A stretch of DNA of 64,000 bases from an uncultured Alphaproteobacteria bacterium (GCA_947627155.1 CANQUX010000004.1:22889-86888); one strand, 5' to 3'; shown: positions 1 to 45,891, counted from the stretch's first letter. Notes: generated by a model not told the origin, from the sequence alone. Translations and numbers: made by a program.

Positions 1-1207
1 AGAAATCTTAAAAATTGAAGAAACGGTCGAAAAAGAATTAAAAGAACTCGAAAAAAAACAAGCAAGCAATCAAAAAGCGGAAAAGAAACCGCAAAATCAG
101 CAGGCAGACCCTCAAAAAAATAAGCAGCAACAAACCGATTCTCAAAAAAACAACCAACCGAAAACCGAATCGGCACAAACAAAGGAAAGTCAAAAAACGG
201 CAGCTTCAAAAGTTGATGCCAAAGAAGAAAAAGCTGATGTTAAAGAAGAAAACATAGCCACCGTTACCGCCGAGGGCGATTTTATTGTGCCGACCTATAT
301 GCTTCCCGCTAAGGAAGATTTGGAAACGGCGCCGCAAAATAATCCCGCCGAAAATAAGGCATCGGAGGCACCTCAAAACGCACCGGATGCCGCGCAAAAC
401 GCGCCTGTCAATAAAGTTTTGCATCAATCAACGGTTAAAATCACGCAAACGGAGTTAACGCCCGTTGCCGAACAAATGGCCGTCGAGCGGTTTTTAACCG
501 GTAAAACCACCAAAACCATGAAAGCTTATAAAGAAGCGTTGGCGCGTCAAAAAGCGGCTCAAAAAGCCGAGAAAGCGCAAACGAAAGAGAACGGCGCAAG
601 TGAAAATGCCGCAAACGGCAGTGAAAATAAAGCGGATGCAACACAAAATAATGATATTGACGCTTTACTTGAAGATGAAACGTCAAAAGAGGCGAAAAAG
701 CCCAAAAAACGGTTGTTGTTGCCGTTGCGTCCGTTGCCTTCAAAAACACCGCCCGCCGAAGATTTGTCGGGAACGGAACCGCTCTTTAAAGTTGTTTCTT
801 CCACCATGGCGGATCAGGTGTTGAAAGATGCGCAAGATCAAACGCGCAGCTCGCTTTTGATGCCGCAAGATATTAAAGTGACGTTTTATCCCGATTCGGC
901 AGAATTTTCCGGACAAACCGTGAAATGGATTAAAGCTTTTGCTTTGCAGGCGTTGAATGATCCGCGTCGGGTGGTGGAAATTCGGCTCAGTCAATATAAT
1001 CCGATCATGCAGCAAAAACGACTTTCCGTTGTCCAACGGCTTTTAATGAACAGCGGCTTATCGGCACATCAAATTGTGGTCGATTATGTGAATCGTCCGG
1101 CAGACAGTTTAATTTTGCGAACCGTGGAAAAGGTTGAAACGGTTCAAAAACGCAAAATTGAAATGAAAAACGGTAAAGTAAAGGAAAATGAAACAATTAT
1201 CTGGTAA
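1..1207 (+). CDS. Hypothetical Lys/Gln-rich protein with its 5' end outside the window; the C-terminal ~90 aa are weakly OmpA/MotB-like. It is the first gene of the pilus-like operon.
   Basis: The frame starting at nt 2 is open from the window edge with no stop before the listed GTG at 287. The N-terminal part is low-complexity (KKQ...). The C-terminus, 'RLSVVQRLLMNSGLSAHQIVVDY', resembles an OmpA-like peptidoglycan-binding segment. It is tightly followed by the next gene on the same strand. Confidence 0.45.
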   Translation, partial: EILKIEETVEKELKELEKKQASNQKAEKKPQNQQADPQKNKQQQTDSQKNNQPKTESAQTKESQKTAASKVDAKEEKADVKEENIATVTAEGDFIVPTYMLPAKEDLETAPQNNPAENKASEAPQNAPDAAQNAPVNKVLHQSTVKITQTELTPVAEQMAVERFLTGKTTKTMKAYKEALARQKAAQKAEKAQTKENGASENAANGSENKADATQNNDIDALLEDETSKEAKKPKKRLLLPLRPLPSKTPPAEDLSGTEPLFKVVSSTMADQVLKDAQDQTRSSLLMPQDIKVTFYPDSAEFSGQTVKWIKAFALQALNDPRRVVEIRLSQYNPIMQQKRLSVVQRLLMNSGLSAHQIVVDYVNRPADSLILRTVEKVETVQKRKIEMKNGKVKENETIIW

Positions 1208-1241
1208 CGCCCTTCTCGGGACATAACAAAAAGGAGTCTAA

Positions 1242-2168
1242 ATGAAGCAAAACTTACTTAAAAACACACTGACAATCGGTATTGCCGCTTGCGCATTCGG
1301 CGTTTTAAGCGCTTGTACGTCTTTGGGATCGTCCGAAAAAGAAGTTGTTGTCAGCGAAACAACATCGGCCGCCGCATCCAAACCGGTTTGCACATCGGAA
1401 CATGACGTTAATTGTATTGTGACTTATGAAGAGCCTGATTTGAATTTGTCGCAAGCGTATGCCGGTTATGCCATGAGTACGAACGCTTCATATCAAAGCG
1501 GCAGTGCGCCGATTTCGTTATCTGCACCGAACACGATTGCCGGCACGTCGGTTAAAGACAGAACGCGTCAAAAAGAATTGGCGCAACAACGAGCCGATTT
1601 GGCCTTGCAGCCCGTTTTAAGCGCCGATGTTCTTTGCGCGGGTGCCGATTGTGAGCAGGCATTGTTTAAAACGGAAATTGAAAAAACCATTCAAACAACC
1701 GTGTTGGAAAGTCAACCCGTTCCCGTAACGGTTAACGGACAAACGGTTATGGCCGCTCCGGCAGGACAAACGGCACAAGCGGCTCAGGTGGGACAAGCAG
1801 TTCAACCGGTACAAGCGGTACAAGCGGTACAAACGGTACAGCCGGCACAACCGGCGGAACCGCCCGTTATGTCCTTGAAAGAACGAATTGCTTACGGCGA
1901 AGAAGTGCATGATTGGGATGCGCCTGCCGGAGAAACATTGCGGAATTTGTTAATGCAATGGGGTGAACAATCCGGTTGGACGGTTGTTTGGAAAATGGAT
2001 CGCGATTATAATTTGGAAGCCGGCGTTGTTTTCCGCGGTAAGTTTACGGAAGTGGCCGCCGCTTTCATTCGCTCGTTTGCTCGGGCAACACCCGCGCCGA
2101 TCGGCACGTTCTATAAAGGAAACAGAGTTTTAGTCATTAACACGCAGGAGAATGATAATGCTGAATAA
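1242..2168 (+). CDS. Lipoprotein, PilL/TcpQ-like, a putative secretin-associated pilotin-type component of the type IVb pilus cluster.
   Basis: An RBS (AAAAGGAG) lies 8 nt upstream. The signal peptide has the lipobox 'LSAC'. It contains a Q/V/A repeat block (VQAVQAVQTVQ) and a C-terminal 'GW..VW...D' segment. Its position immediately 5' of the secretin gene matches R64 pilL-pilN order. Confidence 0.5.
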   Translation: MKQNLLKNTLTIGIAACAFGVLSACTSLGSSEKEVVVSETTSAAASKPVCTSEHDVNCIVTYEEPDLNLSQAYAGYAMSTNASYQSGSAPISLSAPNTIAGTSVKDRTRQKELAQQRADLALQPVLSADVLCAGADCEQALFKTEIEKTIQTTVLESQPVPVTVNGQTVMAAPAGQTAQAAQVGQAVQPVQAVQAVQTVQPAQPAEPPVMSLKERIAYGEEVHDWDAPAGETLRNLLMQWGEQSGWTVVWKMDRDYNLEAGVVFRGKFTEVAAAFIRSFARATPAPIGTFYKGNRVLVINTQENDNAE

Positions 2169-3804
2169 ATCAATGAAATGGAGTTTAATGGGTCTTTTAG
2201 CCGCCGCCGCCATGACGCTGTCGGCTTGTAATGATTATGTTGCCAAAACAAATGAAAAAATTGAAACCACGTTGGAACGTGTGGAAGATCATTTGCAACA
2301 GGCACAAATTCCCGATTTACCGGAACCCGTTGATACGGTGCGTACCAAAAACGATATTTGGTTGGGTACTCAAAGCGTGAAAATTTCCGAAGGCGATGCG
2401 TTGCCGGCAAATATGGAAGAAAAAGATTCCGTCACGCTCTCCATTGCCGAAGCAACCACGTTACCTACTTTGGCGCAGGAAATTACCGATATGACGGGCA
2501 TTACCGTTCGACTGGATAATTTAAAAGCCGAAAATGCCATTCCCACGGAAACCGTTCCGTTTAATTATACCGGTTCGCTCAGCGGCTTGTTAAATTATGC
2601 TTCAAACCGGTACGGCGTGTGGTGGCGGTATAAAGCGGGCATCATTACGTTCTATACGAAAGAAACGCGTGTCTTTAATATATATGCGTTGCCGACGGAA
2701 ACTTCTATTTCTAACTCGTTAAGCGGTGCCTCCATGGGCGATACGGGCGGCAGTTCCAGTTCAACCTTGTCGCAATCGGCCAATCTGGCTTTGTGGGATA
2801 ACATTGAACAAGGCTTACAACAGGTTGTCGGTGAAAACGGGCAGTTATCGTTCAGCCGCGTTGCCGGTACGGTGACCGTGACCGGCAGTCCGTTTGTTAT
2901 TCGCGAAGCCGCCGACTGGATTGCCAAGTTTAACGAAAAATTATCACGGCAGGTTGCCATTTCCGTGAAAGTGTTATCGGTTTCCGTTACGAATGCCGAT
3001 AACTACGGGTTGGATTTAACCGGTGTCTTTACAAACGATACCATTCAGGCAAACTATACCAGTCCGTTTACCATTGCCTCCGGCAGTACGGGTGCGGCAG
3101 CAGGTATGCTTTCCATGACGTTGTTAAAACCCAGCTCCAAGTGGAAAGACAGTAATGCCGTTATTCAGGCTTTCTCGTCGCAAGGTAAAACGGCGTTGGT
3201 TACCTCAGCCAGTGTGACCACACTTAATAATAAAGTGGCACCGATTCAAATTACCACACAACAAAACTATGTGAAAGAATCGAACGTGTCAACATCCGGT
3301 ACCGGTTCCGACAGAAGCGTTGATACCGATATGGAAACGGATACGTTGAATTACGGCTTTATGCTGGAAGTGTTGCCGCGTATTTTGGATCACGGTCGGT
3401 TGATTGTGATGTTCTCAATGAACTTAACCGATTTGGTTTCGTTGGAAACATTCTCGTCTGACGGTTCTTCTTCGGGCGGTACATATGATTACAGCGATGA
3501 ATCCGATTCGGAGGATACGGGTACATCAACGGGTGACCAGGAAAAAACGGTTGTCCAATTGCCGAAAATGCAAACCCGCGGCTTTGTTCAGGAAATTGCC
3601 ATGCGTTCGGGTTCAACATTGGTGTTAACAGGTTTCGAGCAAGTTCAAAATACCACGACGACAGGCGGTATCGGACAAGCCAAGATGGGTATTTTGGGCG
3701 GACAAGCTTATAGTGGCAATAATCGTGACGTGATGGTGATTTTATTAACACCGGAAGTGTTGGAATCGCCGTTATCTCCCGAATCGCGCATGAGAGACTT
3801 TTAA
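2158..3804 (+). CDS. Lipoprotein secretin of type IVb pilus systems (PilN/BfpB/TcpC-like).
   Basis: Lipobox 'LSAC' after an N-terminal signal peptide. The C-terminal ~250 aa have secretin-domain character ('LVTSASVTTLNNKVAPIQITTQQNYV' ... 'GSTLVLTGFEQ' ... 'DVMVILLTPEVL'). Size is 548 aa. The start was moved to the second ATG (2158) because AGGAG at 2146-2150 is too close to the ATG at 2152. Confidence 0.7.
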   Translation: MLNKSMKWSLMGLLAAAAMTLSACNDYVAKTNEKIETTLERVEDHLQQAQIPDLPEPVDTVRTKNDIWLGTQSVKISEGDALPANMEEKDSVTLSIAEATTLPTLAQEITDMTGITVRLDNLKAENAIPTETVPFNYTGSLSGLLNYASNRYGVWWRYKAGIITFYTKETRVFNIYALPTETSISNSLSGASMGDTGGSSSSTLSQSANLALWDNIEQGLQQVVGENGQLSFSRVAGTVTVTGSPFVIREAADWIAKFNEKLSRQVAISVKVLSVSVTNADNYGLDLTGVFTNDTIQANYTSPFTIASGSTGAAAGMLSMTLLKPSSKWKDSNAVIQAFSSQGKTALVTSASVTTLNNKVAPIQITTQQNYVKESNVSTSGTGSDRSVDTDMETDTLNYGFMLEVLPRILDHGRLIVMFSMNLTDLVSLETFSSDGSSSGGTYDYSDESDSEDTGTSTGDQEKTVVQLPKMQTRGFVQEIAMRSGSTLVLTGFEQVQNTTTTGGIGQAKMGILGGQAYSGNNRDVMVILLTPEVLESPLSPESRMRDF

Positions 3805-3815
3805 GGAGTTGACGA

Positions 3816-5144
3816 ATGGCAGAAGAGGCAATGAATAATCCCGCCGGAACGGTACCGGAAATCAATCCGGCCGCGCATGGCTCAATTACAATCGGACGGC
3901 GCGTATATGCCGTCGGGTTGCTGTGGCAGCCGTTGCAAAATTCAGATGATCCGCTGCCGGAAATTCGGGAAGCCATTGACAGTGATCCCGATGCCGATTT
4001 ATATTGCCTGCGGTCCACATCAACCCCGCAATACGGTATCGGCAAAAAAGCCATGGGGCATCATTCGGGTGAGCCGTCCGCGGCGGCAGCCGTTGCTTCA
4101 GCTTTGAATGAATATGTTTCCGTTGCTGCCGTGTTCCCCGTTAAAGAGGGGTGGTGGCTTCTGGCGGTCAGAAATGATTTAATTCTGTCCGAAGAAGATA
4201 TGCTTTTTGATACCGAGCAAGAGGCACAGGAAGCTTTTTATGCTTTAATGGCTTTGCCTGACTGGGATTTAAAAATTGCACCGGAGCATTGGGGTGTTGA
4301 AAAAGCGCGTCAAATCTCTTTGGAAACATTGATTAAAAAATCAGGAACCAAAGTGGCGTTGGAAGAGTTGGGAGCTGCAAAGAAAACGCAGTTCTTAACC
4401 GTTATCGCCATCGGGTTTTTAATTTTAATCGGTGTGTTGATTTATTTCCTTGTTTCGTTATGGAATTCGGTGTTTACGGAAGAAAAAATTGAAGCTGTTC
4501 CGATTCCCGAGGCTATTCAACCGGTTGAACCGACTCCCGAAAAACCGAAACCCTGGGAAAAAGTGCCGCAGTTGGATGTTTTTCTGCATAAGTGTTGGAA
4601 TAATGCTTATCAGTTGACGGCTTTAACCATTCCCGGTTGGCAAATCGGTGCCGTGAACTGTAACTTTCAGGGTTTGACGACCGGTTGGCATAAATCATGG
4701 GACAAAGCCGGCCGAATTGCGTGGCTCAAAGCTGCCTTAAACGAATATAAAATGTCAAGGGTAGATGTTAAATTGAATGATGACGGCGCAACCGCCAGCG
4801 GGCAATTGGCATTTACGGATATTCCGTTGGTTGCTTCCGTTCCGACCATTGAAGATCGGAAATTGTGGGAAGAATTAACCGATATTAAACAAGCTACAAA
4901 CATACAATTGAATTTTTCAAAACAAGCAGTGTTGGATCCGCCGGATAATCCTGACGGAACAAAACCTGCCAATCAGCAAGAGTATGTTTTTTACCAGTTT
5001 TCAATTTCGTCGCCATACACCCCGTTTGAATGGAAGACGTTCTTTGAAAAATTCCCGGGCTTGGAATTAACGGCTATCAGCTTTAATCCGGGTCTGGACG
5101 CTCAAGATAAATGGAAATATGAGGGAAGAATATATGCAAAATAG
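3816..5144 (+). CDS. PilO-like bitopic inner-membrane pilus assembly protein.
   Basis: RBS AAGGAG, then ATG at 3816. There is a single central TM segment ('FLTVIAIGFLILIGVLIYFLVSLW'). The ~440 aa size and its position after the secretin match the R64 pilN-pilO arrangement. No catalytic motifs were seen. Confidence 0.45.
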   Translation: MAEEAMNNPAGTVPEINPAAHGSITIGRRVYAVGLLWQPLQNSDDPLPEIREAIDSDPDADLYCLRSTSTPQYGIGKKAMGHHSGEPSAAAAVASALNEYVSVAAVFPVKEGWWLLAVRNDLILSEEDMLFDTEQEAQEAFYALMALPDWDLKIAPEHWGVEKARQISLETLIKKSGTKVALEELGAAKKTQFLTVIAIGFLILIGVLIYFLVSLWNSVFTEEKIEAVPIPEAIQPVEPTPEKPKPWEKVPQLDVFLHKCWNNAYQLTALTIPGWQIGAVNCNFQGLTTGWHKSWDKAGRIAWLKAALNEYKMSRVDVKLNDDGATASGQLAFTDIPLVASVPTIEDRKLWEELTDIKQATNIQLNFSKQAVLDPPDNPDGTKPANQQEYVFYQFSISSPYTPFEWKTFFEKFPGLELTAISFNPGLDAQDKWKYEGRIYAK

Positions 5145-6345
5145 TTCATTATCATTATTGGCAACGCTTTGTTTGTCAACCGCTTTGTTTGTCGCACCGG
5201 CCTCTGCGCAGAATGCGACGGCGAAAACCAATGATGCTCAACCGACGGCTCAGGCTCAGGCCAAAAATGCCGTAAACAATCAAGGGCAGGCCGCTGATAA
5301 AAAGGCGAATGCCAAACCGGCTGCAAACGGACAAGGGCAAGCCGCCGATAAAAAGGCAAATGCTAAACCGGCCGAAACCGGACAGGCGCAAGCTGCCGAT
5401 AAAAGTAACGGTGCGCAACCGGCCGAAAATAATGCCGCAAAGGAAGAAGAACGGAAGCTGTTGGAAGCCGAATTGAATAACACCGATGTTGATTCAACGG
5501 AAATTTTGGACTTTCCGGCACGGACTTCATTGGGAGAAATTGAAATGGCAACGTTACCGGGTGTCAAGGAATCGTTAATCAACGGTCCTGCCTCGATGGC
5601 ACCTTCCGTTTCAACAAAAGATTTGCCCAGCGAACAATTATTGGGACGTATTACTTCCGAAGTTTTTCAGGAAATGGCTGATTTGGAACGGGGTAATGTG
5701 TTCTTGAAATTACAAATGCAAAAAGAGCAATTGAAAAATGATTTGGAAAAATTAAAAGCAACATATCGTCAAAATCGGTTGGAAGAAATTGCTAAACGGG
5801 AAGATGTGGTGCGTTCGCGTATTGCTTGGTGGCAAGAGCAGGAGGCCGCTCGTTTGGAAATGGAAAAGAAAAAAGCCGAAACGGAAGCTATTGAGCAACA
5901 AATTACCGAAGCGGAAGAGTTGCGGAATAAGTTAAGAGAAGAAGCCATTGCCGAAAAAGAAGCTGCCAAGAAAAAAGCCATTGAAAAAGCGGCGGCAGAG
6001 GCAGCAAAAGCATTAAATACTGTTGAAACACCCGTTGTGGCCGAACAAACAAAAGCGAATGAACAAAATGAAACGCTCGGAGATAAACTTCCGATTTTAA
6101 GTGATACATATTCACTTATCAGTGTGCGCGGCATGAAATCAAATTTATCTGCCTCATTGAAAAACAAAAAGGACGGTTCTTTATCGGTTGTGAAAAAGGG
6201 TGATGTGTTACCTTCCGGACATCATGTGATTGAAATAACCAAAGAATCACTTATTGCTGAAATAGAGAATAGAAAAGATATTCTTCTTTTTGCTGTTGAA
6301 GCAAAAACAGATGATGAGTCGGGAACCGTTGGAGCAAATAAATAA
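5134..6345 (+). CDS. Secreted repeat and coiled-coil protein, PilP-like by position.
   Basis: RBS GAGGGAAG 5 nt before the ATG at 5134. Signal peptide '...LFVAPASA'. Three tandem 'GQAADKKANAKPA' repeats. The central region is coiled-coil (EEERKLLEAEL ... AAKKKAIEKAAAEAAK). It overlaps the previous gene's stop, indicating an operon. Confidence 0.4.
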   Translation: MQNSSLSLLATLCLSTALFVAPASAQNATAKTNDAQPTAQAQAKNAVNNQGQAADKKANAKPAANGQGQAADKKANAKPAETGQAQAADKSNGAQPAENNAAKEEERKLLEAELNNTDVDSTEILDFPARTSLGEIEMATLPGVKESLINGPASMAPSVSTKDLPSEQLLGRITSEVFQEMADLERGNVFLKLQMQKEQLKNDLEKLKATYRQNRLEEIAKREDVVRSRIAWWQEQEAARLEMEKKKAETEAIEQQITEAEELRNKLREEAIAEKEAAKKKAIEKAAAEAAKALNTVETPVVAEQTKANEQNETLGDKLPILSDTYSLISVRGMKSNLSASLKNKKDGSLSVVKKGDVLPSGHHVIEITKESLIAEIENRKDILLFAVEAKTDDESGTVGANK

Positions 6346-6367
6346 AAAAGCATAAAGGGGATTATTG

Positions 6368-8563
6368 ATGAGACCGCCTTTTTTCGGAAACAGACCGAAT
6401 AAACTTCCGGAGTCACATGAGAGTCATCAGGAAACGGACGGAATGTCCAGAGAATATCTTGATGTTTCTCATATTGAGATTCCGGAAGCAGGCGGTTTTG
6501 CGGAAGAAGAGTTACCTGTTATTTCAGAAGTTTCCCCTTTTCCTTCATTTATTGGTGAAACATCCGGTAAAGAAAATTCTGTTGGCAGAAATAATCAAGC
6601 GGAAAAAAATAATGGGGTTATGGGGCAAACACCCGTTACTCAATCAGCGGGCAATTATAATGCGGCACAGGAAGCTCCTTATCGGAATGCTGCCGTTACA
6701 GCTCCGTCATACAGAAAAAAAACATCAGAGGAAAATGTTGATGTCAGCAATATGAGTGAAGCGGCGCAGGCACGCAGTAATTTATTTACCCCGCCCAAAG
6801 CACGAAATTTTGTAAAAATGACGGAACCGTTGTCTTCCTCTGTTCAAAAAGAAGAAAATAATCGGGAAAATTTGCATAAAGTTGTGCAGGAAGCTTTTTT
6901 AAAAAGCGATAAACCGACGAATGAAACGCAAGCCGCGGCTACACCGCAGCCGACTATTGCCGTTAATAAAGATTTTAATTCTCCCTCATTTTTAAAAGAT
7001 TTATTTGATAACGGCAATGTGTGTATTACGGCTTCCGGCGGTTCATTACCGATTAAAGATGAAACGCGTATGTTATTGGCGTTATTTTCAAACGGGCGTT
7101 TTTTTGTTTGCGAAACATATAAGTTTGACGGAAAAGTTTTAGGATTTGAATATTTAGCAAAAAAACGGCATTTGCAGATCGGAAAGCCGGAATATGTGCC
7201 GATGCCGATTTTGCAAAGCATTTATGAATATGCCACGCGTAACGGTTTAACGGAAGTTTCCGAAAGCGATAAAAATGAAGAGCAGGAGCAAGCACAGGCG
7301 CGTATGCAGCGTGACTTTGTGACCATTGTTTCGCGTGCGGCTGCCATGCATGTTTCCGATATTCATATTGTGGTTGCTGATCATACAACGGTTATGTTTC
7401 GGGCGAACGGGTTAATGCAAACGGAAATGGAATACAACAAAGATTGGGGTGAAAGTTTTGTGCGGGCGGCTTTTGCTTCTTCCGATATTTCCGATTCAAA
7501 CTATGCGCAAAATGAATATCAGGCAGCTCAAAAGTTGGGGCGAACGCCGCTCAGAGGATCGCACGGAAAGTTAGTGTTGCCGCGAAATATTTTAGGTATT
7601 CGTTTACAGTTTAACCCGATTGCATTTGGTACACGCTATGTGGTTATGCGGTTATTATATGCCGAAGAATCATCAAATGCTTCCACCGGTTTGGAAGCGC
7701 TCGGGTTTACGGAACGGGAGCTTGATTTTTTCTATCAGCTGCGGGGGGCACCGACCGGTATTACCATTATTTCCGGACCGACGGGTTCCGGTAAATCAAC
7801 AACCTTGCAACGAAATATGATTCAAATGTTGCAGGAACGCAATTATGAAATTAACTTAATTACGGTGGAAGATCCGCCGGAATATCCGATTCCGGGTGCC
7901 CGACAAATGCCGGTGACCAACGCATCCATTGAAGAGGCCAAAGAACGTGAGTTTACAAAAGCCTTGTCTGCGGCTCTTCGTTCCGACCCGGACAGTTTGA
8001 TGATCGGAGAGGTGCGTACCTTGTCGGCGGCCGATTTGGCTTTCCGTGGCGCTTTATCCGGACATAACGTGTGGACAACGCTTCATGCCAACAGTGCGCC
8101 GGCCATTTTAATGCGTTTAAAAGATTTGGGTGTGGAAGATTTTAAATTGCGTGACCCGGATATTGTCAAAGGTTTGTTGGCTCAGCGGTTGTTTCGTCGG
8201 CTTTGCCCCAAGTGTCGTGTGCCGGCAACACAACGGCTGAATGTGCCGTCTGTGCAACGGTTGCGGGAGGCCTTTGGTGATATTGGTGTTGAAAGTTCTT
8301 ATTTGCGCGGAAAAGGGTGTAAATATTGTGATTTCAGAGGGGTTAAAGGACGAATGTCCGTTGCGGAAATTATTTTGCCGGATGCGACTTTCCTTGATTT
8401 GGTTATGAAAGGGGAAACGAAGAAAGCAATTAACTATTGGATTAATGATTTAAACGGTATGACATTGCGGGAGGTTGCCATTTCCCATATGTTTAAAGGA
8501 ATTATTGATGTTGATGAAGTCGAACGGTGGACGGGCTTCTTAAATCAGATTGTAAACGCCTGA
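6368..8563 (+). CDS. GspE/PilB-family secretion ATPase (PilQ-like) with a long disordered N-terminal extension.
   Basis: Walker A 'SGPTGSGKSTT', Asp box 'ITVEDPPEY', Walker B 'DPDSLMIGEVR', His box 'GHNVWTTLHANSA', and tetracysteine 'CPKC...CKYC'. RBS AAAGGGGA before the ATG at 6368. The first ~320 aa are low complexity (S/N/E-rich). Confidence 0.85.
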   Translation: MRPPFFGNRPNKLPESHESHQETDGMSREYLDVSHIEIPEAGGFAEEELPVISEVSPFPSFIGETSGKENSVGRNNQAEKNNGVMGQTPVTQSAGNYNAAQEAPYRNAAVTAPSYRKKTSEENVDVSNMSEAAQARSNLFTPPKARNFVKMTEPLSSSVQKEENNRENLHKVVQEAFLKSDKPTNETQAAATPQPTIAVNKDFNSPSFLKDLFDNGNVCITASGGSLPIKDETRMLLALFSNGRFFVCETYKFDGKVLGFEYLAKKRHLQIGKPEYVPMPILQSIYEYATRNGLTEVSESDKNEEQEQAQARMQRDFVTIVSRAAAMHVSDIHIVVADHTTVMFRANGLMQTEMEYNKDWGESFVRAAFASSDISDSNYAQNEYQAAQKLGRTPLRGSHGKLVLPRNILGIRLQFNPIAFGTRYVVMRLLYAEESSNASTGLEALGFTERELDFFYQLRGAPTGITIISGPTGSGKSTTLQRNMIQMLQERNYEINLITVEDPPEYPIPGARQMPVTNASIEEAKEREFTKALSAALRSDPDSLMIGEVRTLSAADLAFRGALSGHNVWTTLHANSAPAILMRLKDLGVEDFKLRDPDIVKGLLAQRLFRRLCPKCRVPATQRLNVPSVQRLREAFGDIGVESSYLRGKGCKYCDFRGVKGRMSVAEIILPDATFLDLVMKGETKKAINYWINDLNGMTLREVAISHMFKGIIDVDEVERWTGFLNQIVNA

Positions 8564-8580
8564 TAAATAAGGAGAGATAA

Positions 8581-9708
8581 ATGGCTGAAAATGCAAAAAA
8601 GAAAGATACGAAAGCTTCGGCAGCAATCGGTTCGGGTGATATTTTCTTTTCAAGAATGATGGTGCGGTTATACACCTCGGACAGATTGGCTTTTTATTAT
8701 AAATTAAAAGCTTTGTTGCACAACCGTTTTTCTTTAATGGATGCTTTGGAGCGTATGTATCAAATTTATTCGAAGGAAGGGAAAAAACCAACGGAATCCA
8801 TGGCGGTTGCCATTACAACGTGGATGCATCAAATTCGAAACGGTGAAACATTTTCCGTGGCTTTGCGCGGGTGGGCGCCGTCAACGGAAGTGTTAATGTT
8901 ATCCGTGGGTGATGTTTCGAATTTGGAAGATGCGTTGGCGAATACCATTAAGGTTGTGGAAGGAATGAACCGAATGAAAGAACCGGTGTTTTCAGCGGTT
9001 TCTTACCCGTTATTCTTGATGGTTATGGTTATTTTGCTTATTTACGGTGTCGGTGCTTATATGGTGCCGCCGATGGTTGATGCCGTTCCGAACCTGATCT
9101 GGACGGGAACGGCAAAATCGTTGGTTGATTTGTCTTATTTTGTGCGGGATCATCCGCTTCCTCTGTTTTTAACATTACCGATTATAATTTTTCTTATTAT
9201 TCTGACTTTCCCGCGTTGGAAACGAGAATCACGTGCGGTTGCCGATAAGTTTCCGCCATGGTCGATTTATCGAATTTTTATCGGTGTCGGTTGGTTGTTA
9301 TCATTATCGGCGCTTGTTCGGGCAGGAACACCTGTTTCAAAAGCCATGCGTTCGTTAAGAGGTGATGCTTCTCCTTATTTGCTTTATCGAATTGACAGAG
9401 CATTGAGCTATGTGAACAACGGTGATAACTTGGGTGATTCATTGTATAAAACAAAATTGAATTTTCCTGATGAAGAAGTTGTCGGTGATTTAAGAATTTA
9501 TGCCGAGTTGGATAACTTCCCGGAAGCCTTAACGCGTTTATCCGATGATTGGTTGGAAAGCTCTATTAAAGATATTGAGAAAAAAGCCGGGGTGTTAAAC
9601 GGTGTGGCTATTTTGTTGATTGCCGGTATTGTGGCTTGGGCCGTTATGGGAACATTTGATATGCAAGAGCAAATGGTCAACGGTATGGGCTTGGGCGGCG
9701 GTCGTTAA
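8581..9708 (+). CDS. GspF/PilC-family inner-membrane platform protein (PilR-like).
   Basis: RBS AAGGAGAG then ATG. 375 aa with three hydrophobic segments and a cytoplasmic N-domain. It lies immediately downstream of the ATPase, as in R64 pilQ-pilR and gspE-gspF. Confidence 0.6.
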   Translation: MAENAKKKDTKASAAIGSGDIFFSRMMVRLYTSDRLAFYYKLKALLHNRFSLMDALERMYQIYSKEGKKPTESMAVAITTWMHQIRNGETFSVALRGWAPSTEVLMLSVGDVSNLEDALANTIKVVEGMNRMKEPVFSAVSYPLFLMVMVILLIYGVGAYMVPPMVDAVPNLIWTGTAKSLVDLSYFVRDHPLPLFLTLPIIIFLIILTFPRWKRESRAVADKFPPWSIYRIFIGVGWLLSLSALVRAGTPVSKAMRSLRGDASPYLLYRIDRALSYVNNGDNLGDSLYKTKLNFPDEEVVGDLRIYAELDNFPEALTRLSDDWLESSIKDIEKKAGVLNGVAILLIAGIVAWAVMGTFDMQEQMVNGMGLGGGR

Positions 9709-14185: not shown

Positions 14186-14890
14186 ATGCGTTTTATAAAA
14201 AAATTTTTTTCAAAAGATTTAAATAAAGCTTTTGTACGGGCTTTTGAAAAAGGCTTCTATCAAAAGGCATTGCATTATGCGCAAAAAGGCGCCAATCCCA
14301 ATGCCAAAAATTTTGAAGGAAACACTTTTTTGCATTACTATGTTGCGGCTTATGTTCATGTGCCGGCACGTGAGTTGAAGGCGTTTCATTTACCCCCGGA
14401 ACCCGATGAAAACGTATTGGCGCAAATGAAAGAATTAGGCGCCGATATGGATTGTTTAAATCGTTATAAGCAAACACCGTTGGAAATGGCATTGGAAAAA
14501 GATGATCCGTTTATGGTTTCCGTTTTAATTCGAGCGGGTGCTGATAAAGAACATCGCAATAAAAACGGATTAACGCCGTTGCAAAATGCCGTTTATCACG
14601 GAATGGGTCGTTGTATGCGCATTTTGGTGCGTATGGGTGCCGATATTGAAGCAGAATTAACAACAGCCTCTTCTTTAACGCATTTGGCGGAAAAAGGAAA
14701 AGAAGTTTTCGGCAAGTTTGCACATACGAATTTTGAAAGAGTTGACATGATTTTGCAAGAATTGAAAGAAAAGGGATTTAACGTTGATAAAACGCCGAAG
14801 CCGAAAGAAATAACGGGCTTAGCCATTGTTGAACCCGCTTTCGATATTCAAGTGATTAAAAATTTGCAAAATCAAAATACACGTTCTTAA
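14186..14890 (+). CDS. Ankyrin-repeat protein.
   Basis: Ankyrin units of the 'G.TPLH.A...G' type are visible: 'NGLTPLQNAVYHGMGRCMRILVRMGADIE' and 'YKQTPLEMALEKDDPFMVSVLIRAGAD'. Confidence 0.8.
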   Translation: MRFIKKFFSKDLNKAFVRAFEKGFYQKALHYAQKGANPNAKNFEGNTFLHYYVAAYVHVPARELKAFHLPPEPDENVLAQMKELGADMDCLNRYKQTPLEMALEKDDPFMVSVLIRAGADKEHRNKNGLTPLQNAVYHGMGRCMRILVRMGADIEAELTTASSLTHLAEKGKEVFGKFAHTNFERVDMILQELKEKGFNVDKTPKPKEITGLAIVEPAFDIQVIKNLQNQNTRS

Positions 14891-14905
14891 ATAAAGGCAA
14901 AAATA

Positions 14906-15556
14906 ATGAATGATTTTTTAAACAGTAACAGATTATTGAGTGAATCAATATGCTCTGATGATATTGTCGGTGTTCGAACGGCATTAGACAGAGGAGCTCA
15001 TTTGTCGGGAGTTGTTTTATTGGATGATAATATGCATACCGTGGAATGTGCCGTGTTAAATTTGCCGTTAAATCAAGCTTTTAATGAAAAAGTTTCCGAT
15101 GAAATTATCACGCTTTTAAAAAAAGCGGGTGCCGGTTGTGAAATTCCCAATATTTACAGATGTTCGGCACTTTATTTTGCATCGGCAAACGGGTTTTGTG
15201 CTTTGGCGCAAAAACTTGTTCAGGAGGGCAGTAAAATTGATGCGCGTAATTTGTTCGGTGAAACCCCGCTGCATGTGGCCATTCGGTCAGGACAACAAAA
15301 AATGGTTCAACTGTTGTGTGAAATGGGAGCCAATATATTTTTATCCGATAAAAGCGGGCGAACACCGCTTAAATTGATTGCTTTACTTAAAGAATCAAGA
15401 AAATACGGTCGCAAAAATATCAGCCGGCAACAGCTTGATGAAATGTATCGCATTTTAATCAATTCCAAGCAAATGCAAAAAGTTGAACCTGTTCGAATTT
15501 CTTCTCAAAAACCGAAAATTTTGCTTCGTTTTCAAAAAGAAAGGGTTTATGCATGA
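14906..15556 (+). CDS. Ankyrin-repeat protein.
   Basis: 'FGETPLHVAIRSGQQKMVQLLCEMGANI' and 'SGRTPLKLIA' are ankyrin units. It overlaps the next gene by 4 nt. Confidence 0.8.
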   Translation: MNDFLNSNRLLSESICSDDIVGVRTALDRGAHLSGVVLLDDNMHTVECAVLNLPLNQAFNEKVSDEIITLLKKAGAGCEIPNIYRCSALYFASANGFCALAQKLVQEGSKIDARNLFGETPLHVAIRSGQQKMVQLLCEMGANIFLSDKSGRTPLKLIALLKESRKYGRKNISRQQLDEMYRILINSKQMQKVEPVRISSQKPKILLRFQKERVYA

Positions 15557-16578
15557 CAGAGAGTGAAGAGAGCGTGGAATCACAGGTGCGGAAAAATAAG
15601 CAGGAAGAAAAAATTTTTGTCATTAAACGACTGTTCCTGTCTTATTTGATTCAACAATTTAAAAAATCGCATCCGGAACATTTTTCGCATAAAGTCTTTG
15701 CCGATTATTATCAAAAACTGGTTGAAACAGAGCAATTGCAAGAGCAGTTTATGCTTTTTATTGACGAAAAAACAGAAAAAAAGGTTCAGGAAAAACCATC
15801 GTTTTTGCAAAAAGGCAAAACGTTTCTTACAAATTTATTCCGCAAAAAAACACCGGCGGATTATCAAAAAATAATTGCCGATCGGTTATATGATGAGTAT
15901 CTTAAAAACATTCTTTTGAAAAAGCCGATATCGACGAATGCGGTTTATTCCCTGCTTGAAAAATGCGACACAACGGAGTTTTATATCAAATCACCTTATA
16001 CGGTTTTCGGAGATTTGACGCCGTTAACTTTTGCTTGCAAGGTTAATGATTCGAGCTTGGTTCATAAGCTTCAAAGATTAAATGCCGATGTGAATTTTCC
16101 CGACAGTGATTTAAATTTACCGCTTCATTTATCGGTGCAATGGGGGCGTTATGAAATTGTTCAATCCTTACTGATGAGTGATGAAATTGATAAAGAGTGT
16201 CCGGATTATAAAACCGGCAGAACGCCTTTACAGGAGGCTGCTTTTTGCGGATATGCCGATATGATGGGATTGTTGCTGATGAACGGTGCGCGGTTTGAAG
16301 ATCCCGAAAAATTAGCGGCTTTGGCTCGAAAAGGAAAAATGTATCGGATGTCAACGGATAAGAAAGAAGATTTTGAAAAAAGAAATTTTGAAAATGTTTT
16401 GGAAATGATTCACTATTATGCCGATCAAAAAAATGAAAAACATCAATCGGCCGAAATGACCGAAAAAACAGAAACAATCTCTATGCAAAATAAACCCGTT
16501 AAAATTATGTCGGATCAGCACCTAAATCAACTCATACGAACGGGGTTAGGCTTCAATTTATCGCGGGAGCATACTTAA
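15553..16578 (+). CDS. Ankyrin-repeat protein.
   Basis: 'DLNLPLHLSVQWGRYEIVQSLLMS' and 'TGRTPLQEAAFCGYADMMGLLLMNGA' are ankyrin units. It is the third gene of a tandem ankyrin trio. Confidence 0.75.
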   Translation: MTESEESVESQVRKNKQEEKIFVIKRLFLSYLIQQFKKSHPEHFSHKVFADYYQKLVETEQLQEQFMLFIDEKTEKKVQEKPSFLQKGKTFLTNLFRKKTPADYQKIIADRLYDEYLKNILLKKPISTNAVYSLLEKCDTTEFYIKSPYTVFGDLTPLTFACKVNDSSLVHKLQRLNADVNFPDSDLNLPLHLSVQWGRYEIVQSLLMSDEIDKECPDYKTGRTPLQEAAFCGYADMMGLLLMNGARFEDPEKLAALARKGKMYRMSTDKKEDFEKRNFENVLEMIHYYADQKNEKHQSAEMTEKTETISMQNKPVKIMSDQHLNQLIRTGLGFNLSREHT

Positions 16579-22988: not shown

Positions 22989-24047
22989 ATGAAAAAAATC
23001 AGTTTGTTTTTGCTTGCGTTAACAGTTTCGTTGCCTGCTTTTGCCGGTTTTGTAGAGGGGGAACAAGCTTTTAACGAACAACGCTATTCTCAAGCCTTTA
23101 ACGAATTTTTACCGTTAGCGAACGAGGGTGATTTTCGGTCGCAGTATTATGTGGCTTATTTATACATTAACGGATACGGTGTCACACAAAACGCCAAAGA
23201 AGGGTTAAAATATTTGCAGCAGGCCGTTGATCAAAATTATGATATGGCACAAGCTTTAATGGCTTATTTATATTCTGAAGGGAAAATTGTTCCGGAGGAT
23301 AAAGAAAAAGCCATCGAGCTTTATCAACTGGCGGCTGATCAAAACAATATTTCCGCTAATTTAAATTTGGGGGTTATGTATTATAAAGGCGATTCGGTGC
23401 CGCGGAACTATCAAACCGCATTGGAATATTTCCAAAAGGTGCCGCTTGATCAAAACCCGGTTGTCAGCCGATATTTGGGCGATATTTACCTGAATAATGC
23501 TTCTTTGCGTGATTACAGCAAAGCGTTGCAATATTATGAATTATCGGCCAAACAAAAAGATTTAAGTGCCTATTTCAGTTTGGGTGAAATGTATCGCAAA
23601 GGATTGGGTGTTGATCAGGATATGTCACAAGCTCTCACCTATTATAAATATGCCGCTTCGCAAAATTACAGTTCGGCACAGTATATGTTGGGTATTATTT
23701 ACGCAAACGGTGAAGGTGTTTCAAAAGATGTTTATAAGGCTTATGCGTGGTTTCATTTAGCTGCCGAGCAAAATTTAACCAGTGCTGCCGATGCGCAACA
23801 ACGTTTAATTAAAAATATGTCGTTATCCGATTTGGATATGGCGCGGCGCCAGGTGGTACTTATTCAGCAAAATGAAATGGGTAAAATTGAGGCCCCGTTA
23901 AAGCCGGATCCGGTTCCGCAAGTGGTCGAGGCAACAGGTGCTGCTTCCGGTCAGGGTGCCATTTCCGTGTATGGCGGAAGTGCCAGTTCGGCCGGCGGCA
24001 ATTCCGGTAATGCAAAACGGCGTGTTTTACGCAGACGGAGGAGATAA
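22989..24047 (+). CDS. Secreted Sel1-repeat (TPR-like) protein.
   Basis: Signal peptide. There are about 7 Sel1 units of the form 'A...Y..AA.QG...AQ..LG.MY..G.GV..D...A..W'. The C-terminus is a basic tail, 'RRVLRRRRR'. Confidence 0.8.
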   Translation: MKKISLFLLALTVSLPAFAGFVEGEQAFNEQRYSQAFNEFLPLANEGDFRSQYYVAYLYINGYGVTQNAKEGLKYLQQAVDQNYDMAQALMAYLYSEGKIVPEDKEKAIELYQLAADQNNISANLNLGVMYYKGDSVPRNYQTALEYFQKVPLDQNPVVSRYLGDIYLNNASLRDYSKALQYYELSAKQKDLSAYFSLGEMYRKGLGVDQDMSQALTYYKYAASQNYSSAQYMLGIIYANGEGVSKDVYKAYAWFHLAAEQNLTSAADAQQRLIKNMSLSDLDMARRQVVLIQQNEMGKIEAPLKPDPVPQVVEATGAASGQGAISVYGGSASSAGGNSGNAKRRVLRRRRR

Positions 24048-24663: not shown

Positions 24664-25110
24664 ATGAAAAAACAAATCGCTACAATCGTGTTGTCTTCAA
24701 CACTTTTATTATCCGGTTGCGCCAGCTGGTGCGACGAATGTGCCGACGGCTCTTGCGAAGTTGTCACATCCAAAGTTGTTTTACCGACATCAACGTTATT
24801 TGCGTTTGATTCGGCTAAATTAACAATTGCTGATGATACGGCTTTGGCAACTGTTATCGACAGATTAAAAGCAGAACCGACGGAATATGTTAAAATTTCC
24901 GGTTATACAGACAGCACAGGTCCGGAAGGCTACAATTTGAAGTTATCCGAACGTCGTGCCAACGCCGTTGCCGCTTATTTGGAAGCCAACGGTATTGCTG
25001 CTGATCGCATTACAACACACGGTTATGGTGAAGCCGATCCGGTTGCTTCCAACGCAACGGCTGCCGGTCGTCAACAAAACCGTCGTGCGGTTGTCGTTAC
25101 ATATAAATAA
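24664..25110 (+). CDS. OmpA-family peptidoglycan-associated lipoprotein (Pal-like).
   Basis: RBS GAAGGAG. Lipobox 'LLLSGC'. OmpA-C signature: 'SGYTDSTGPEGYNLKLSERRANAVAAYL ... HGYGEADPVASNATAAGRQQNRRAVV'. Confidence 0.85.
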   Translation: MKKQIATIVLSSTLLLSGCASWCDECADGSCEVVTSKVVLPTSTLFAFDSAKLTIADDTALATVIDRLKAEPTEYVKISGYTDSTGPEGYNLKLSERRANAVAAYLEANGIAADRITTHGYGEADPVASNATAAGRQQNRRAVVVTYK

Positions 25111-26590: not shown

Positions 26591-26623
26591 GCGTTGCATT
26601 AAAGGTACGTTTAATTGTATACT
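26591..26623 (+). promoter_or_regulatory. Conserved promoter box of pilin-adhesin gene A.
   Basis: TTGCAT (26594-26599), then 17 nt, then GTATAC or TATACT. The spacer TAAAGGTACGTTTAATT is itself a near-palindrome. The 26-mer is identical to the one at 53549-53574. Confidence 0.45.
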
Positions 26624-26650
26624 GTTCGTATAATGAAAGGGAGTCGGAAA

Positions 26651-28012
26651 ATGACCATGCAATCAAAAAAACAAATTCAAAATCAATCCCAAAGTGGCCG
26701 TTCAATGGTTGAAATGCTGGGTGTGTTGGCGATTATTGCTATTCTGTCCATCGGCGGGATTGTCGGATTCCGATTGGCAATGAATTATTATCAAGCCAAT
26801 CAAATTGCCCATGAAATGAATATCATGCGCACCGATGCGCAGATAAAAATCGCCCAAGGCGCGGAGGAATTAACCCTCGGTGATCCGTATGACAGCGGAA
26901 ATATTCAATTTAACGGATATAAAACCGATTTTGATTGTCTTTATATGGAAACGGAAACGTCAGAACCCGAACTTGCTTCCTGTGCCGTTGCAAATGCCTA
27001 TTATATTGAAATGCAAAAAATTCCCGAAGGCATTTGCAAACCGCTGGCGAATTTAATTGATAAAATGGATAACGAAATTGCTTTTTATATCAATGGGAAA
27101 TCGGTTGATGCGGCAGAGGGAGAAAAAGGCGCTTGCCTTGGAGAAGAGAATATATTAACGGTGATCTTCGGTGCCGATTCGGATTCGGAGGCGATTAAGT
27201 GTAATGATGATCCCGATTGTCCCGATAACTTACCGATTTGTCATGAACATTTGTGTGTGGAGTGTGAAACGGATGAAGATTGCCCCTATAACACACAATA
27301 TTGTGAAGGAAATGCTTGTCAAACGTGTCCCGATAATCAAATATGGGGCGGTGCAGGAAAAGGTTGTGTGGAATGTTTAACATATGAAGATTGCACAGAT
27401 CCCGAAAAACCCAAATGTGAGCAAACTACAAACAAGTGCGTAGCGTGTCCGCCGAAATCGGTCTTTTATGAGGGCGAATGCTATGAATATGAATGTCGCA
27501 CCAACGAAGATTGCGCTGATAAAGGTGATGGCTATTATTGTCATGCCGAAGACGGAGATCGCACGTCTGACGGAGGCACGAACTATTCCGAATGGATAGA
27601 CAAACCGGGACAATATCTCGGCGGGAAATGCAAAAATGCCAGTCAAAGCAAAATGACGACGCCTGATGATGTTCCCTATGTGGTTTCTCAAGAAAAAATG
27701 GATTGGTGGTCTGCACAGCGTTTTTGTGAAGTACTTCATATGAGAACCGCCTCACGAAGAGATTTCGGTTGTGAAAATACAATAACTGATACTGATTGTG
27801 CTACTATAGATTGTTGTAAAAATGAAAAACTTGAATATCTTGATGAACATCATTTTCCGCGTGTCCCTGTTTGGTTAGAGTTAGTTACAGATCCGACTGA
27901 CAGATTATATGGACGAGCTATCAGTTTTGGTACAAAAAATAACACAAATATAGATTCGGATTTTCCGGCTTGGGGGGAAACAACGTCAAATTATGCTTTC
28001 TGTCAACCTTAA
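26651..28012 (+). CDS. Modular minor pilin/tip-adhesin candidate A. It consists of a class-III signal pilin domain, a Cys-rich stalk, and a lectin-like C-terminal domain.
   Basis: RBS AAAGGGAG 7 nt before the ATG at 26651. Leader 'MTMQSKKQIQNQSQSG|RSMVEMLGVLAIIAILSIGG' with Glu at +5. The middle region has repeated 'C..DEDCP' modules. The C-terminus, 'MDWWSAQRFCEVLHMRTASRRDFGC', is conserved with the paralog at 53605. Confidence 0.7.
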   Translation: MTMQSKKQIQNQSQSGRSMVEMLGVLAIIAILSIGGIVGFRLAMNYYQANQIAHEMNIMRTDAQIKIAQGAEELTLGDPYDSGNIQFNGYKTDFDCLYMETETSEPELASCAVANAYYIEMQKIPEGICKPLANLIDKMDNEIAFYINGKSVDAAEGEKGACLGEENILTVIFGADSDSEAIKCNDDPDCPDNLPICHEHLCVECETDEDCPYNTQYCEGNACQTCPDNQIWGGAGKGCVECLTYEDCTDPEKPKCEQTTNKCVACPPKSVFYEGECYEYECRTNEDCADKGDGYYCHAEDGDRTSDGGTNYSEWIDKPGQYLGGKCKNASQSKMTTPDDVPYVVSQEKMDWWSAQRFCEVLHMRTASRRDFGCENTITDTDCATIDCCKNEKLEYLDEHHFPRVPVWLELVTDPTDRLYGRAISFGTKNNTNIDSDFPAWGETTSNYAFCQP

Positions 28013-29366: not shown

Positions 29367-29807
29367 TTAGCTTTGTTTGAATTCAACAGCGCTCATTTTT
29401 GCAGAGGCGCATCCGTCATTTTTACCCAAAATGCTGGCACCGGCTTTGCAAACGGCATCTGTCGGAAATTCAATATCTAATTTTACAATACCTTTTTTCA
29501 AATCTTCTTCTGAAGAAGAGGTATAAGTAATTTTAGCGCCACCGGGGGTTGTACTGCTGCCGGAATTAATTAAACCGGAACTGGCTAACGTGGGGGTTGA
29601 CCAATTATTGCCCATGGCGCTCGCCGTTTGATAGCTGGAATAAATAACCACGGCAAATTTATTGGCCATATCCAGTGCTTCATTGGCGCGATAACGATTC
29701 ATTGCCATGGAATAACCGGCAATACCGCCAATGGATAAAACGCCGATAATGGCTAAAACGCCCAGCATTTCAACCATTGACCGGCCTGATTCGTTTGTTC
29801 TTTTCAT
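29367..29807 (-). CDS. Type IV pilin, major-pilin-like (PilS-like).
   Basis: Leader 'MKRTNESG|RSMVEMLGVLAIIGVLSIGGIAGY' with Glu at +5. The C-terminus 'CKAGASILGKNDGC' is a disulfide-bonded D-region pair. 146 aa. An AAGGA RBS lies before the second ATG; the alternative start is 29822. Confidence 0.7.
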   Translation of the reverse strand: MKRTNESGRSMVEMLGVLAIIGVLSIGGIAGYSMAMNRYRANEALDMANKFAVVIYSSYQTASAMGNNWSTPTLASSGLINSGSSTTPGGAKITYTSSSEEDLKKGIVKLDIEFPTDAVCKAGASILGKNDGCASAKMSAVEFKQS

Positions 29808-29920
29808 TTTTTGTCCTTTCATTTATGTTGTTTTTTAAGCTCCCCGAGCCAAAAAACGTTTATTTTTAAGGCATTATTGCCTTATTTTCCCTATCGAGAG
29901 ATTTTTTTCTCTCATTTATG

Positions 29921-37774: not shown

Positions 37775-37916
37775 TTACACTCTCCTTAATAAATTCTTAA
37801 TAATTGTATCACAAAAAAGAATCCCTGTCAACGAAAAAAAGATAACTGCTTTTAGTGTTTGTTTTCATTAAAAAAATCCGACAATAATGCCGGATTTTTT
37901 ATCGCTTTTTAAGGCT

Positions 37917-38153: not shown

Positions 38154-38168
38154 TTTTTTTCTCCTTGA

Positions 38169-38675: not shown

Positions 38676-38681
38676 AACCGA

Positions 38682-40028: not shown

Positions 40029-40040
40029 GGCTTTTCCCGT

Positions 40041-44515: not shown

Positions 44516-44541
44516 TAACGCGATAAAAAAGAGGGCAGACG

Positions 44542-45876: not shown

Positions 45877-45891
45877 GGAGAAGGAGAAAAT

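Follow-up and report, generated by a model that had tools for sequence, protein, structure and literature searches.

A type IVb pilus assembly operon conserved among uncultured gut Alphaproteobacteria

Which filament is encoded by a cluster of seven genes in an uncultured gut alphaproteobacterium, and to which of the known pilus systems is it related? The cluster, g1 to g7, lies at positions 1-9708 of a stretch of 64,000 nucleotides (GCA_947627155.1, CANQUX010000004.1:22889-86888), which we call the window; coordinates given without a label refer to it, and L001 to L078 are labels of the contigs compared. Based on the sequence alone, the original prediction had described the cluster as a type IVb pilus assembly operon of the R64/PAPI-1 type, split from its pilin genes and unusual for Alphaproteobacteria. 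Type IVb pili are mainly known from enteric Gammaproteobacteria, where they act in colonisation, i.e. the bundle-forming pilus (BFP), the toxin-coregulated pilus (TCP) and colonisation factor antigen III (CFA/III), and as aids to conjugation (R64, PAPI-1). Here we confirm that the operon encodes a type IVb pilus system, and neither a type II secretion system (T2SS) nor a Tad pilus. Its BFP-like machinery is chromosomal and is conserved among uncultured Alphaproteobacteria of the gut, in at least 57 species. The earlier reading of the anatomy is correct; the subtype label and the degree of rarity need correction.

Seven genes of a type IVb assembly machine

The seven genes share one strand, with intergenic gaps of 11-34 nt and otherwise overlaps of 11-17 nt between the open reading frames (ORFs) of the window, so that their coordinates (Table 1) bear out the tight, co-directional packing described before. 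Profile matches likewise support the claimed type IVb assembly operon with L-N-O-P-Q-R gene order, and all four proposed profiles were recovered on the expected products, namely TcpQ (PF10671) on g2, Secretin (PF00263) on g3, T2SSE on g6 and T2SSF on g7.

The TcpQ domain of g2 (E = 2e-17) spans residues 224-300, and a lipobox LSAC can be read in both g2 and g3. In BLASTP searches g2 matches the L protein of a Bosea megaplasmid (4e-15), BfpG (8e-15) and PilL of IncI1 (1e-9); it is the counterpart of PilL, BfpG and TcpQ, the partner of the secretin. For the secretin g3 the best NCBIfam model is TIGR02520 (PilN type IVB secretin), with 262.9 bits compared to 25.8 bits for GspD and 21.8 bits for PilQ, and a search of the PDB returns BfpB as the sole match (1.2e-43). 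The bitopic protein g4, with one transmembrane segment, is covered over its whole length by PAP_PilO (PF06864, 8e-29). Its N-terminal domain matches the BfpC structure 3VHJ (1.9e-8), and its homologs carry the NCBI name 'type 4b pilus protein PilO2'.

No Pfam or NCBIfam model matches g5, in which a signal peptide, a region of Ala/Lys/Gln-rich repeats and a long coiled coil can be read. A hidden Markov model (HMM) of its family, built from 54 members, finds PilP of IncI1 (8e-5), the ORF in the PilP position of Methylorubrum (4e-6) and the ORF in the BfpU position of the BFP-like plasmid locus L064 (6e-3). Since the model recovers IncI1 PilP and the Methylorubrum ORF, we regard g5 as an enlarged PilP, which probably links the inner-membrane parts with the secretin.

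The T2SSE match of g6 (5e-68) is accompanied by a visible Walker A motif (GPTGSGKST) and a tetracysteine motif. BfpD is its best PDB match (2.6e-89, 303 bits), far ahead of GspE (2e-46, 162 bits), and its identity amounts to 39% with the Bosea protein, 36% with BfpD and 27% with PilQ of IncI1. An N-terminal extension of ~200-300 residues has no match. For g7 both domains of T2SSF are found (1.7e-25), with 37% identity to PilR of Bosea, 35% to BfpE and 26% to PilR of IncI1. These similarities identify g6 as the pilus assembly ATPase of the PilQ/BfpD/TcpT class and g7 as the platform protein of the GspF family (PilR/BfpE/TcpE). Together, the operon provides the assembly ATPase, the platform, a lipoprotein secretin with its TcpQ partner and the PilO2/BfpC bitopic protein that characterise type IVb pili. 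The type IV filament superfamily model of Denise et al. (2019, PMC6668835) lists ATPase, platform, secretin, pilin and prepilin peptidase as mandatory, and lets the peptidase gene be a loner.

The relation of such machines to the T2SS has to be considered. Type IVb systems can secrete proteins, as TCP exports TcpF and CFA/III exports CofJ, and the operon could mainly work in the manner of a T2SS, a short pseudopilus exporting soluble proteins. GspE is the best NCBIfam model for the g6 ATPase, and many secreted low-complexity proteins are encoded in the window. However, the GspE score (227 bits) stays far under its cut-off of 630 bits and BfpD scores much higher; the other T2SS equivalog models also fall short (GspD 25.8 versus 351 bits, GspF 42.7 versus 424 bits). 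ORF reading and profile scans detect no GspC, GspL, GspM or pseudopilin gene within 1-9708, and a GspG-K pseudopilin set is missing. In addition, the pilin family described below is very large and diverse (7606 matches), as expected of an exposed fibre. We consider a mainly secretory machine very unlikely. A Tad/Flp system is contradicted by a TadA-family score of 43 bits against a cut-off of 373 bits and by the lack of an Flp gene and of a TadB/C pair in the operon. Hence neither of the two assignments that had been named as fatal to the type IVb reading was obtained. Promoter and terminator scans were uninformative, with counts near those of shuffled sequence.

The first gene of the operon has no equivalent in the reference type IVb loci. 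Its start lies ~146 nt before the window, and its full length of 450 residues is seen in L001, a near-identical metagenome contig whose PilO protein is identical to that of the window. The product has a signal peptide, a conserved N-terminal motif TAEGDF(L/I)xPTY, a low-complexity linker and a C-terminal domain, and matches no Pfam or NCBIfam family. An AlphaFold2 model of the last 150 residues, based on a 50-sequence alignment, has a mean predicted local distance difference test (pLDDT) score of 90.5. Its top Foldseek matches in the PDB are all OmpA-like peptidoglycan-binding domains (PA0833, FopA1, OprF, Pal and MotB; best E = 2e-5). The OmpA-like nature claimed for this gene is thus supported by fold and not by HMM. 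A family HMM detects g1 in 52 gut loci but at no reference type IVb locus; it is a lineage-specific accessory gene, always the first of its operon. An exhaustive HMMER search with the C-terminal domain yields 336 representative clusters, ten sampled members of which have no Pfam family. Distant members of the domain family are 500-835 residues long. In sampled contigs these long g1-like genes are followed by a TcpQ-domain gene wherever the contig extends past the gene (5/5) and by the rest of the pilus operon in all four that reach further.

Relation to known type IVb systems

The L-N-O-P-Q-R order, which corresponds to G-B-C-U-D-E in BFP, is shared with other type IVb systems. The system is not specifically of the R64/PAPI-1 type, and the further genes by which the R64, PAPI-1 and BFP loci are defined are missing here. 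We compared the operon with five reference loci, from IncI1 (R64-like, L065), the PAPI-1-like plasmid pUM505 (L070), BFP of enteropathogenic Escherichia coli (EPEC, L069), a BFP-like E. coli plasmid (L064) and a Bosea megaplasmid (L068). In BLASTP comparisons of L, N, O, Q and R, Bosea ranks at the top and IncI1 at the bottom, with L064 above the PAPI-1-like locus throughout. Authentic BFP also exceeds the PAPI-1-like locus, the one exception being the secretin, for which BFP falls slightly behind; the PAPI-1-like locus is accordingly third for the secretin and fourth elsewhere. For the ATPase the scores are 351 bits (Bosea), 314 (BFP-like), 303 (BFP), 254 (PAPI-1-like) and 158 (IncI1). Neighbour-joining trees of Q, R and N, which are rough, carry no bootstrap support and leave out TCP and CFA/III sequences, place a monophyletic gut clade next to (Bosea + Methylorubrum) + BFP and apart from IncI1 + PAPI-1. 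Based on the BLASTP scores, the trees, the structural matches to BfpB, BfpC and BfpD, the missing accessory genes and the non-mobile flanks, the R64/PAPI-1 subtype of the original prediction is not borne out.

The closest well-studied relative is BFP, encoded on EPEC plasmid pMAR2 (bfpA-G-B-C-U-D-E-F-P-H-I-J-K-L) and, in BFP-like form, on E. coli plasmid NZ_AP027831.1. Its core genes stand in the order found here, i.e. TcpQ-domain protein, lipoprotein secretin, PilO2/BfpC, small periplasmic protein, ATPase and platform. Likewise, BfpB, BfpC and BfpD are the best or sole PDB matches, ATPase and platform share 35-36% identity with their BFP counterparts, and the habitat is the gut. In contrast to BFP, no pilin gene heads the operon of the window, which starts with the additional OmpA-fold gene. 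The BfpF retraction ATPase, BfpP peptidase, BfpH transglycosylase, the minor pilins BfpI, BfpJ and BfpK, and BfpL are not found in cis. Moreover, g5 far exceeds BfpU in size and is PilP-like, the locus lies on the chromosome rather than on a plasmid, and the pilins are not detectably bundlin-like. The system is thus BFP-like without being a member of the BFP group, as just the G-B-C-(U)-D-E core of the 14-gene bfp operon is present.

The IncI1/R64 thin pilus (pilI-V with shufflon) and the pil2 loci of PAPI-1 and pUM505 share the L-N-O-P-Q-R order, with g5 as the PilP homolog. Two further likenesses are the large pilin-like proteins of the window, which fall in the PilV size class, and a neighbouring pilin gene of the type IV secretion system (T4SS) kind, both the R64 and the PAPI-1 pilus working alongside a T4SS. 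Unlike R64/IncI1, the window has no pilS, pilT, pilU, pilV, shufflon or rci after the platform gene and does not lie on a conjugative element. PAPI-1, an integrative and conjugative element (ICE) of mating-pair formation type MPF_G, continues with pilS2-pilT2(ATPase)-pilV2-pilM2; none of these genes lies in cis here, and no integrase or relaxase is present. No PilT lytic transglycosylase, PilU, PilV with shufflon or PilM is encoded in cis.

The megaplasmid loci of Bosea sp. RAC05 (pBSY19_1) and Methylorubrum extorquens AM1 also encode a long protein in the PilP position and a long ATPase. The locus of Bosea goes on with genes for a second, PilT-like ATPase and for an adhesin of the PilV type; its neighbours, in an ICE-like setting, encode a thioredoxin-fold protein and topoisomerase III, and, unlike the window, it has no g1 homolog. 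TCP of Vibrio cholerae and CFA/III/Longus of enterotoxigenic E. coli serve colonisation of the gut; they combine a secretin pair of the TcpQ/TcpC type with a single large minor pilin (TcpB, CofB) and lack a retraction ATPase. Unlike in the window, their pilin and peptidase genes lie inside the operon. The pilin N-terminus x-S/T-L/M-L/V-E presumably resembles MTLLEV and MSLLEV.

The statement that such a pilus is unusual for Alphaproteobacteria was overstated, considering the type IVb loci on the Bosea and Methylorubrum megaplasmids, the occurrence of the operon in at least 57 species and the PilO2 name already given by NCBI. A survey from 2019 (PMC6668835) stated that descriptions of type IVb pili had been confined to Gammaproteobacteria, and added Acidithiobacillia and Nitrospirae. 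Our literature search found no publication that describes the pilus of the gut clade.

Conservation, pilins and function

The alphaproteobacterial origin proposed for the window is corroborated by the related contigs, which are gut metagenome-assembled genomes (MAGs) labelled Alphaproteobacteria. PilO has 213 homologs in the protein collection, the named ones being called 'type 4b pilus protein PilO2 [Alphaproteobacteria bacterium]'. When one genome was scanned for each GTDB species, 57 related loci emerged, nearly all titled uncultured Alphaproteobacteria MAGs, from gut metagenomes of rabbit, ruminant, yak, deer and human (Hadza, Nepal). PilO identity across them ranges from 97% down to 36%, and the order g1 to g7 is kept in all 57 as far as each contig reaches. 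One locus with 59% PilO identity, L019 (CAYPVK010000005.1), holds the whole alphaproteobacterial operon under the title 'uncultured Lactobacillales bacterium' and is probably mislabelled or mis-binned.

In the window MarC, META and ClpB come after g7. This downstream flank is common only to the closest species; elsewhere other housekeeping genes take its place, and the flanks comprise ClpB, def/fmt/truA, queA, LeuRS, enolase, SecA and ATP synthase. No integrase or relaxase is present in the examined flanks. Ratios of non-synonymous to synonymous substitution rates (dN/dS) of 0.04-0.19 against four relatives demonstrate that g2 to g7 are under purifying selection. The conserved order, the housekeeping flanks and the low dN/dS values indicate a vertically inherited, functional chromosomal trait and not an island. 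A genomic island was ruled out by the unremarkable GC content, the housekeeping flanks and the absence of an integrase.

As predicted, the pilin-like genes are split from the operon, and three of them were located 17, 20 and 44 kb downstream. The small one has the N-terminus ...ESG followed, across the cleavage site, by RSMVEMLGVLAIIGVLSIGGIAGY, so that Gly occupies position -1, Arg +1 and Glu +5. All three share ...G followed by RSMVEMLGVLAIIG(V/I)(L/I)SIGGI... at the corresponding position, and strict GFxxxE-type pilin patterns match nothing in the window because its pilins read G-R-S-M-V-E. Among 51 members of the pilin family G12, R13, S14, M15, E17 and the pair Cys124/Cys137 are invariant. 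The AlphaFold2 model of the small pilin (pLDDT 82) comprises an N-terminal helix of 59 residues and a small beta domain, i.e. the layout of a long helix with a globular head. The N-terminal helix is of hydrophobic character.

The first large protein, for which a start at 26651 is likely (453 residues), has the same N-terminus and a Cys-rich C-terminal region; comparable in size to TcpB, CofB and PilV, it may be a minor pilin or a tip adhesin. The second large protein has a Cys-rich, EGF-like C-terminal region. Neither belongs to a Pfam family, and the second is also without significant PDB match; both are candidate tip adhesins or initiator minor pilins.

Many genomes carry several copies of the pilin family; the few members for which a source is named bear the title 'hypothetical protein [Alphaproteobacteria bacterium]', and no Pfam domain occurs among those listed. 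In about nine loci, pilin genes of the family are found at most 10 kb from the operon. In two divergent relatives they stand in tandem directly after the platform gene, four in L061 and three in L057, with the same invariant N-terminus, GRSM(V/I)EMLGVLAI, which ties the pilin genes to the operon. One of the L061 pilins passes the Pfam PilS model (PF08805; 2.5e-7, 31.3 bits versus a cut-off of 22). Giant pilin-like proteins of 722-1077 residues with the same N-terminus are encoded a few kb upstream of the operon in three further loci.

From homology with the BFP, TCP and R64 systems we infer how the pilus would be made and used. The prepilins, encoded elsewhere in the genome (the 151-residue candidate major pilin and the two Cys-rich pilin-like proteins of ~465 residues), would enter the inner membrane and be cut after the conserved Gly by a peptidase encoded outside the window. 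The g6 ATPase, the g7 platform and the PilO2/BfpC protein g4 would polymerise the processed pilins, with the PilP homolog g5 joining this motor to the lipoprotein secretin g3. Assembly of the secretin is expected to depend on the TcpQ-domain lipoprotein g2, while the OmpA-fold domain of g1 may fasten the apparatus to the cell wall. A gene for a retraction ATPase is absent in cis. The pilus could then attach the cells to the host mucosa or to other gut cells; the part in host interaction suggested by the original prediction is plausible.

Several observations weigh against this picture. The g3 secretin remains just below the trusted cut-off of TIGR02520 (262.9 versus 287.65 bits). Foldseek matches the model of the small pilin to no PDB entry, none of the window pilins passes a curated model (N_methyl 14.9 bits versus a cut-off of 21.2), and the pilin-family HMM detects neither BfpA nor PilS pilins. 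To our knowledge, Arg at +1 is unusual for a substrate of prepilin peptidase. A homolog of this peptidase (A24) was found neither in the 64-kb window nor at a distance of up to 10 kb from the operon of any of the 57 related loci. The search used phmmer with BfpP, PilU and the L064 peptidase, positive controls being recovered, together with Pfam scans of the window ORFs; for the 64-kb window it agrees with the earlier statement that no peptidase is encoded in cis. Finally, the adhesive role is argued by analogy with enteric type IVb pili only.

The dispersed pilin genes, the lack of a peptidase gene nearby and the missing retraction ATPase could also mean that the operon is a remnant in decay, cut off from its pilins and peptidase, with the pilus no longer made. 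However, 57 species have each of the seven ORFs intact, dN/dS values stay at 0.04-0.19 and the pilin N-termini are invariant, which makes a remnant highly improbable. We conclude that 1-9708 is very probably a functional type IVb pilus assembly operon. Adhesion or aggregation, as in the enteric systems, is the likeliest function of the pilus, the odds that it is the main role being about even; functional operon and adhesive or aggregative role, taken together as one reading, appear likely. Poorly known gut bacteria thereby gain a specific candidate for attachment. For genome-reduced gut Alphaproteobacteria of the order Rs-D84 a partner-dependent lifestyle has been proposed (PMC12306168); a contact pilus would fit this idea if the window organism belonged to Rs-D84.

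A VirB2-like neighbour and other loci

Directly upstream of g1, in divergent orientation, lies a gene of the TrbC/VirB2 family (PF04956, 2.8e-10; 120 residues), ~390-750 nt before position 1 of the window. Based on a family HMM it is present in 33 of the 57 gut loci, several others lacking upstream sequence. Among the five sampled contigs with long g1-like genes it is found upstream in four, including L075 and L076, and not in L078. Two relatives, L072/L073 and L077, have the VirB2-like gene at the head of a cluster arranged head-to-head with the pilus operon. In both, virB2 is followed by a VirB3-like protein of 96 residues with two transmembrane segments, then by VirB4 (TrwK, 5e-35), by four helical secreted proteins (222-266 residues) and by a protein of 579-612 residues. 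Judged by eye the helical secreted proteins of L072 resemble VirB5, but Pfam and the PDB returned no match and the assignment was not accepted.

These neighbours raise the question whether the pilus is a contact device serving a VirB-type T4SS, steadying cell-cell contact for DNA transfer or effector delivery. Besides the conserved VirB2-like gene, in the gut loci as well as in the distant L075 and L076, and the virB2-(virB3-like)-virB4 clusters, the ankyrin and Sel1 genes 4.5-14 kb downstream of the operon would agree with it, ankyrin and Sel1 proteins being typical classes of T4SS effectors. On the other hand, neither the window nor the 10 kb around the operon of the 57 gut loci holds a further T4SS gene, relaxase, coupling protein and integrase are lacking, and the context is chromosomal and vertically inherited. 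The adjacency of the VirB2-like gene could be merely retained ancestral synteny, and the core proteins are least similar to precisely the two known conjugation-linked type IVb systems, R64 and PAPI-1. A contact device for a T4SS therefore seems unlikely. The link to conjugation or a T4SS that had been suggested gains some support from the conserved VirB2-like neighbour.

A broader version of this idea, in which a type IVb pilus, passed on vertically, is linked genetically with a module of the VirB type as a dedicated apparatus for contact with, or delivery to, host cells, protists or bacteria, we regard as similarly doubtful. If true, the coupling would be a chromosomal, non-conjugative counterpart of the pairing of the R64 thin pilus with its T4SS, and the coupled pilus would use a very large, fast-diversifying pilin family with an invariant Arg at +1.

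In many relatives a protein of 150-180 residues, an OmpR-type response regulator and a histidine kinase adjoin the pilus operon, sometimes on its other side. The small protein has an HDLKGQG motif in the copies read and looks like a histidine phosphotransfer (Hpt) protein by eye. This recurring two-component system is likely a regulator of the pilus operon; its genes do not adjoin the operon in the lineage of the window itself. Together with the OmpA-fold first gene, the enlarged PilP, the dispersed and diversified Arg+1 pilins and the VirB2-like neighbour, the two-component neighbour is one of the distinctive traits of the system.

Table 1. Positions of the operon genes, of pilin-like genes and of other features in the window and in labelled contigs (aa, amino acids).
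Feature	Position	Strand	Remark
g1, 3' part	<1..1207	+	OmpA-fold C-terminal domain, secreted
g2	1242-2168	+	lipoprotein, C-terminal TcpQ domain
g3	2152/2158-3804	+	lipoprotein secretin, PilN/BfpB/TcpC class
g4	3816-5144	+	bitopic inner-membrane protein, PilO2/BfpC
g5	5119/5134-6345	+	secreted PilP homolog
g6	6365/6368-8563	+	GspE-class assembly ATPase
g7	8581-9708	+	GspF-class inner-membrane platform protein
Large pilin-like protein	26615-28012	+	465-aa ORF; pilin-family HMM 4.7e-19
Small pilin	29367-29822	-	151 aa, candidate major subunit; class III-type N-terminus
Second large pilin-like protein	53605-55023	+	472 aa; pilin-family HMM 5e-22
Giant pilin-like protein	L034 1086-3254	-	
Giant pilin-like protein	L058 2854-6087	+	
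Giant pilin-like protein	L062 2886-5312	+	
VirB2-like gene	L001 5437-5799	-	
VirB2-headed cluster	L072 1553-9685		
VirB2-headed cluster	L077 1607-9679		
Two-component set	L018, L020-L022, L024, L027, L029, L048 ~3600-6200	+	
Two-component set	L066 2652-5168		
Two-component set	L067 15724-18215		
Two-component set	L051 3976-5990		
Ankyrin-repeat and Sel1-repeat genes	14186-16578, 22989-24047	+	three tandem ankyrin genes, one Sel1 gene
Small OmpA-family protein	24664-25110	+	
Similar OmpA gene	L066 18186-18653		
Low-complexity proteins	36137-42128	-	secreted-looking, without family
Low-complexity protein	50607-51395	+	secreted-looking, without family; 262 aa
Polytopic membrane proteins	42992-47952	+	507, 444 and 686 aa
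VWA and VWA+TPR proteins	59736-62563	+	

The remaining features of the window are listed in Table 1. The ankyrin-repeat and Sel1-repeat genes are embedded among ClpB, truA, fmt, def and queA; in L076 a Sel1 gene directly follows the pilus operon. The small OmpA-family protein has a weak match to Tad CpaD (7e-4), below the cut-off, and the similar OmpA gene of L066 lies 2.7 kb downstream of the operon. Three tandem paralogous membrane proteins have 5-11 hydrophobic segments each and Ser/Gln-rich tails. Their architecture is like that of a VirB6-like array, but there is no Pfam, NCBIfam or PDB match and the assignment, a guess, was set aside.

The secreted-looking low-complexity proteins are large. 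One of them, a protein of 695 residues on the minus strand, has long QQQAPQPQ repeats, which are probably the cause of the strong negative AT skew at 40-42 kb, and a domain of ~220 residues that is 44% identical to the 262-residue protein starting at 50607. Two neighbouring genes encode a VWA-domain protein and one with VWA and TPR domains, which to the eye resemble BatA/BatB; they lie beside rlmN and a gene of the IalB family.

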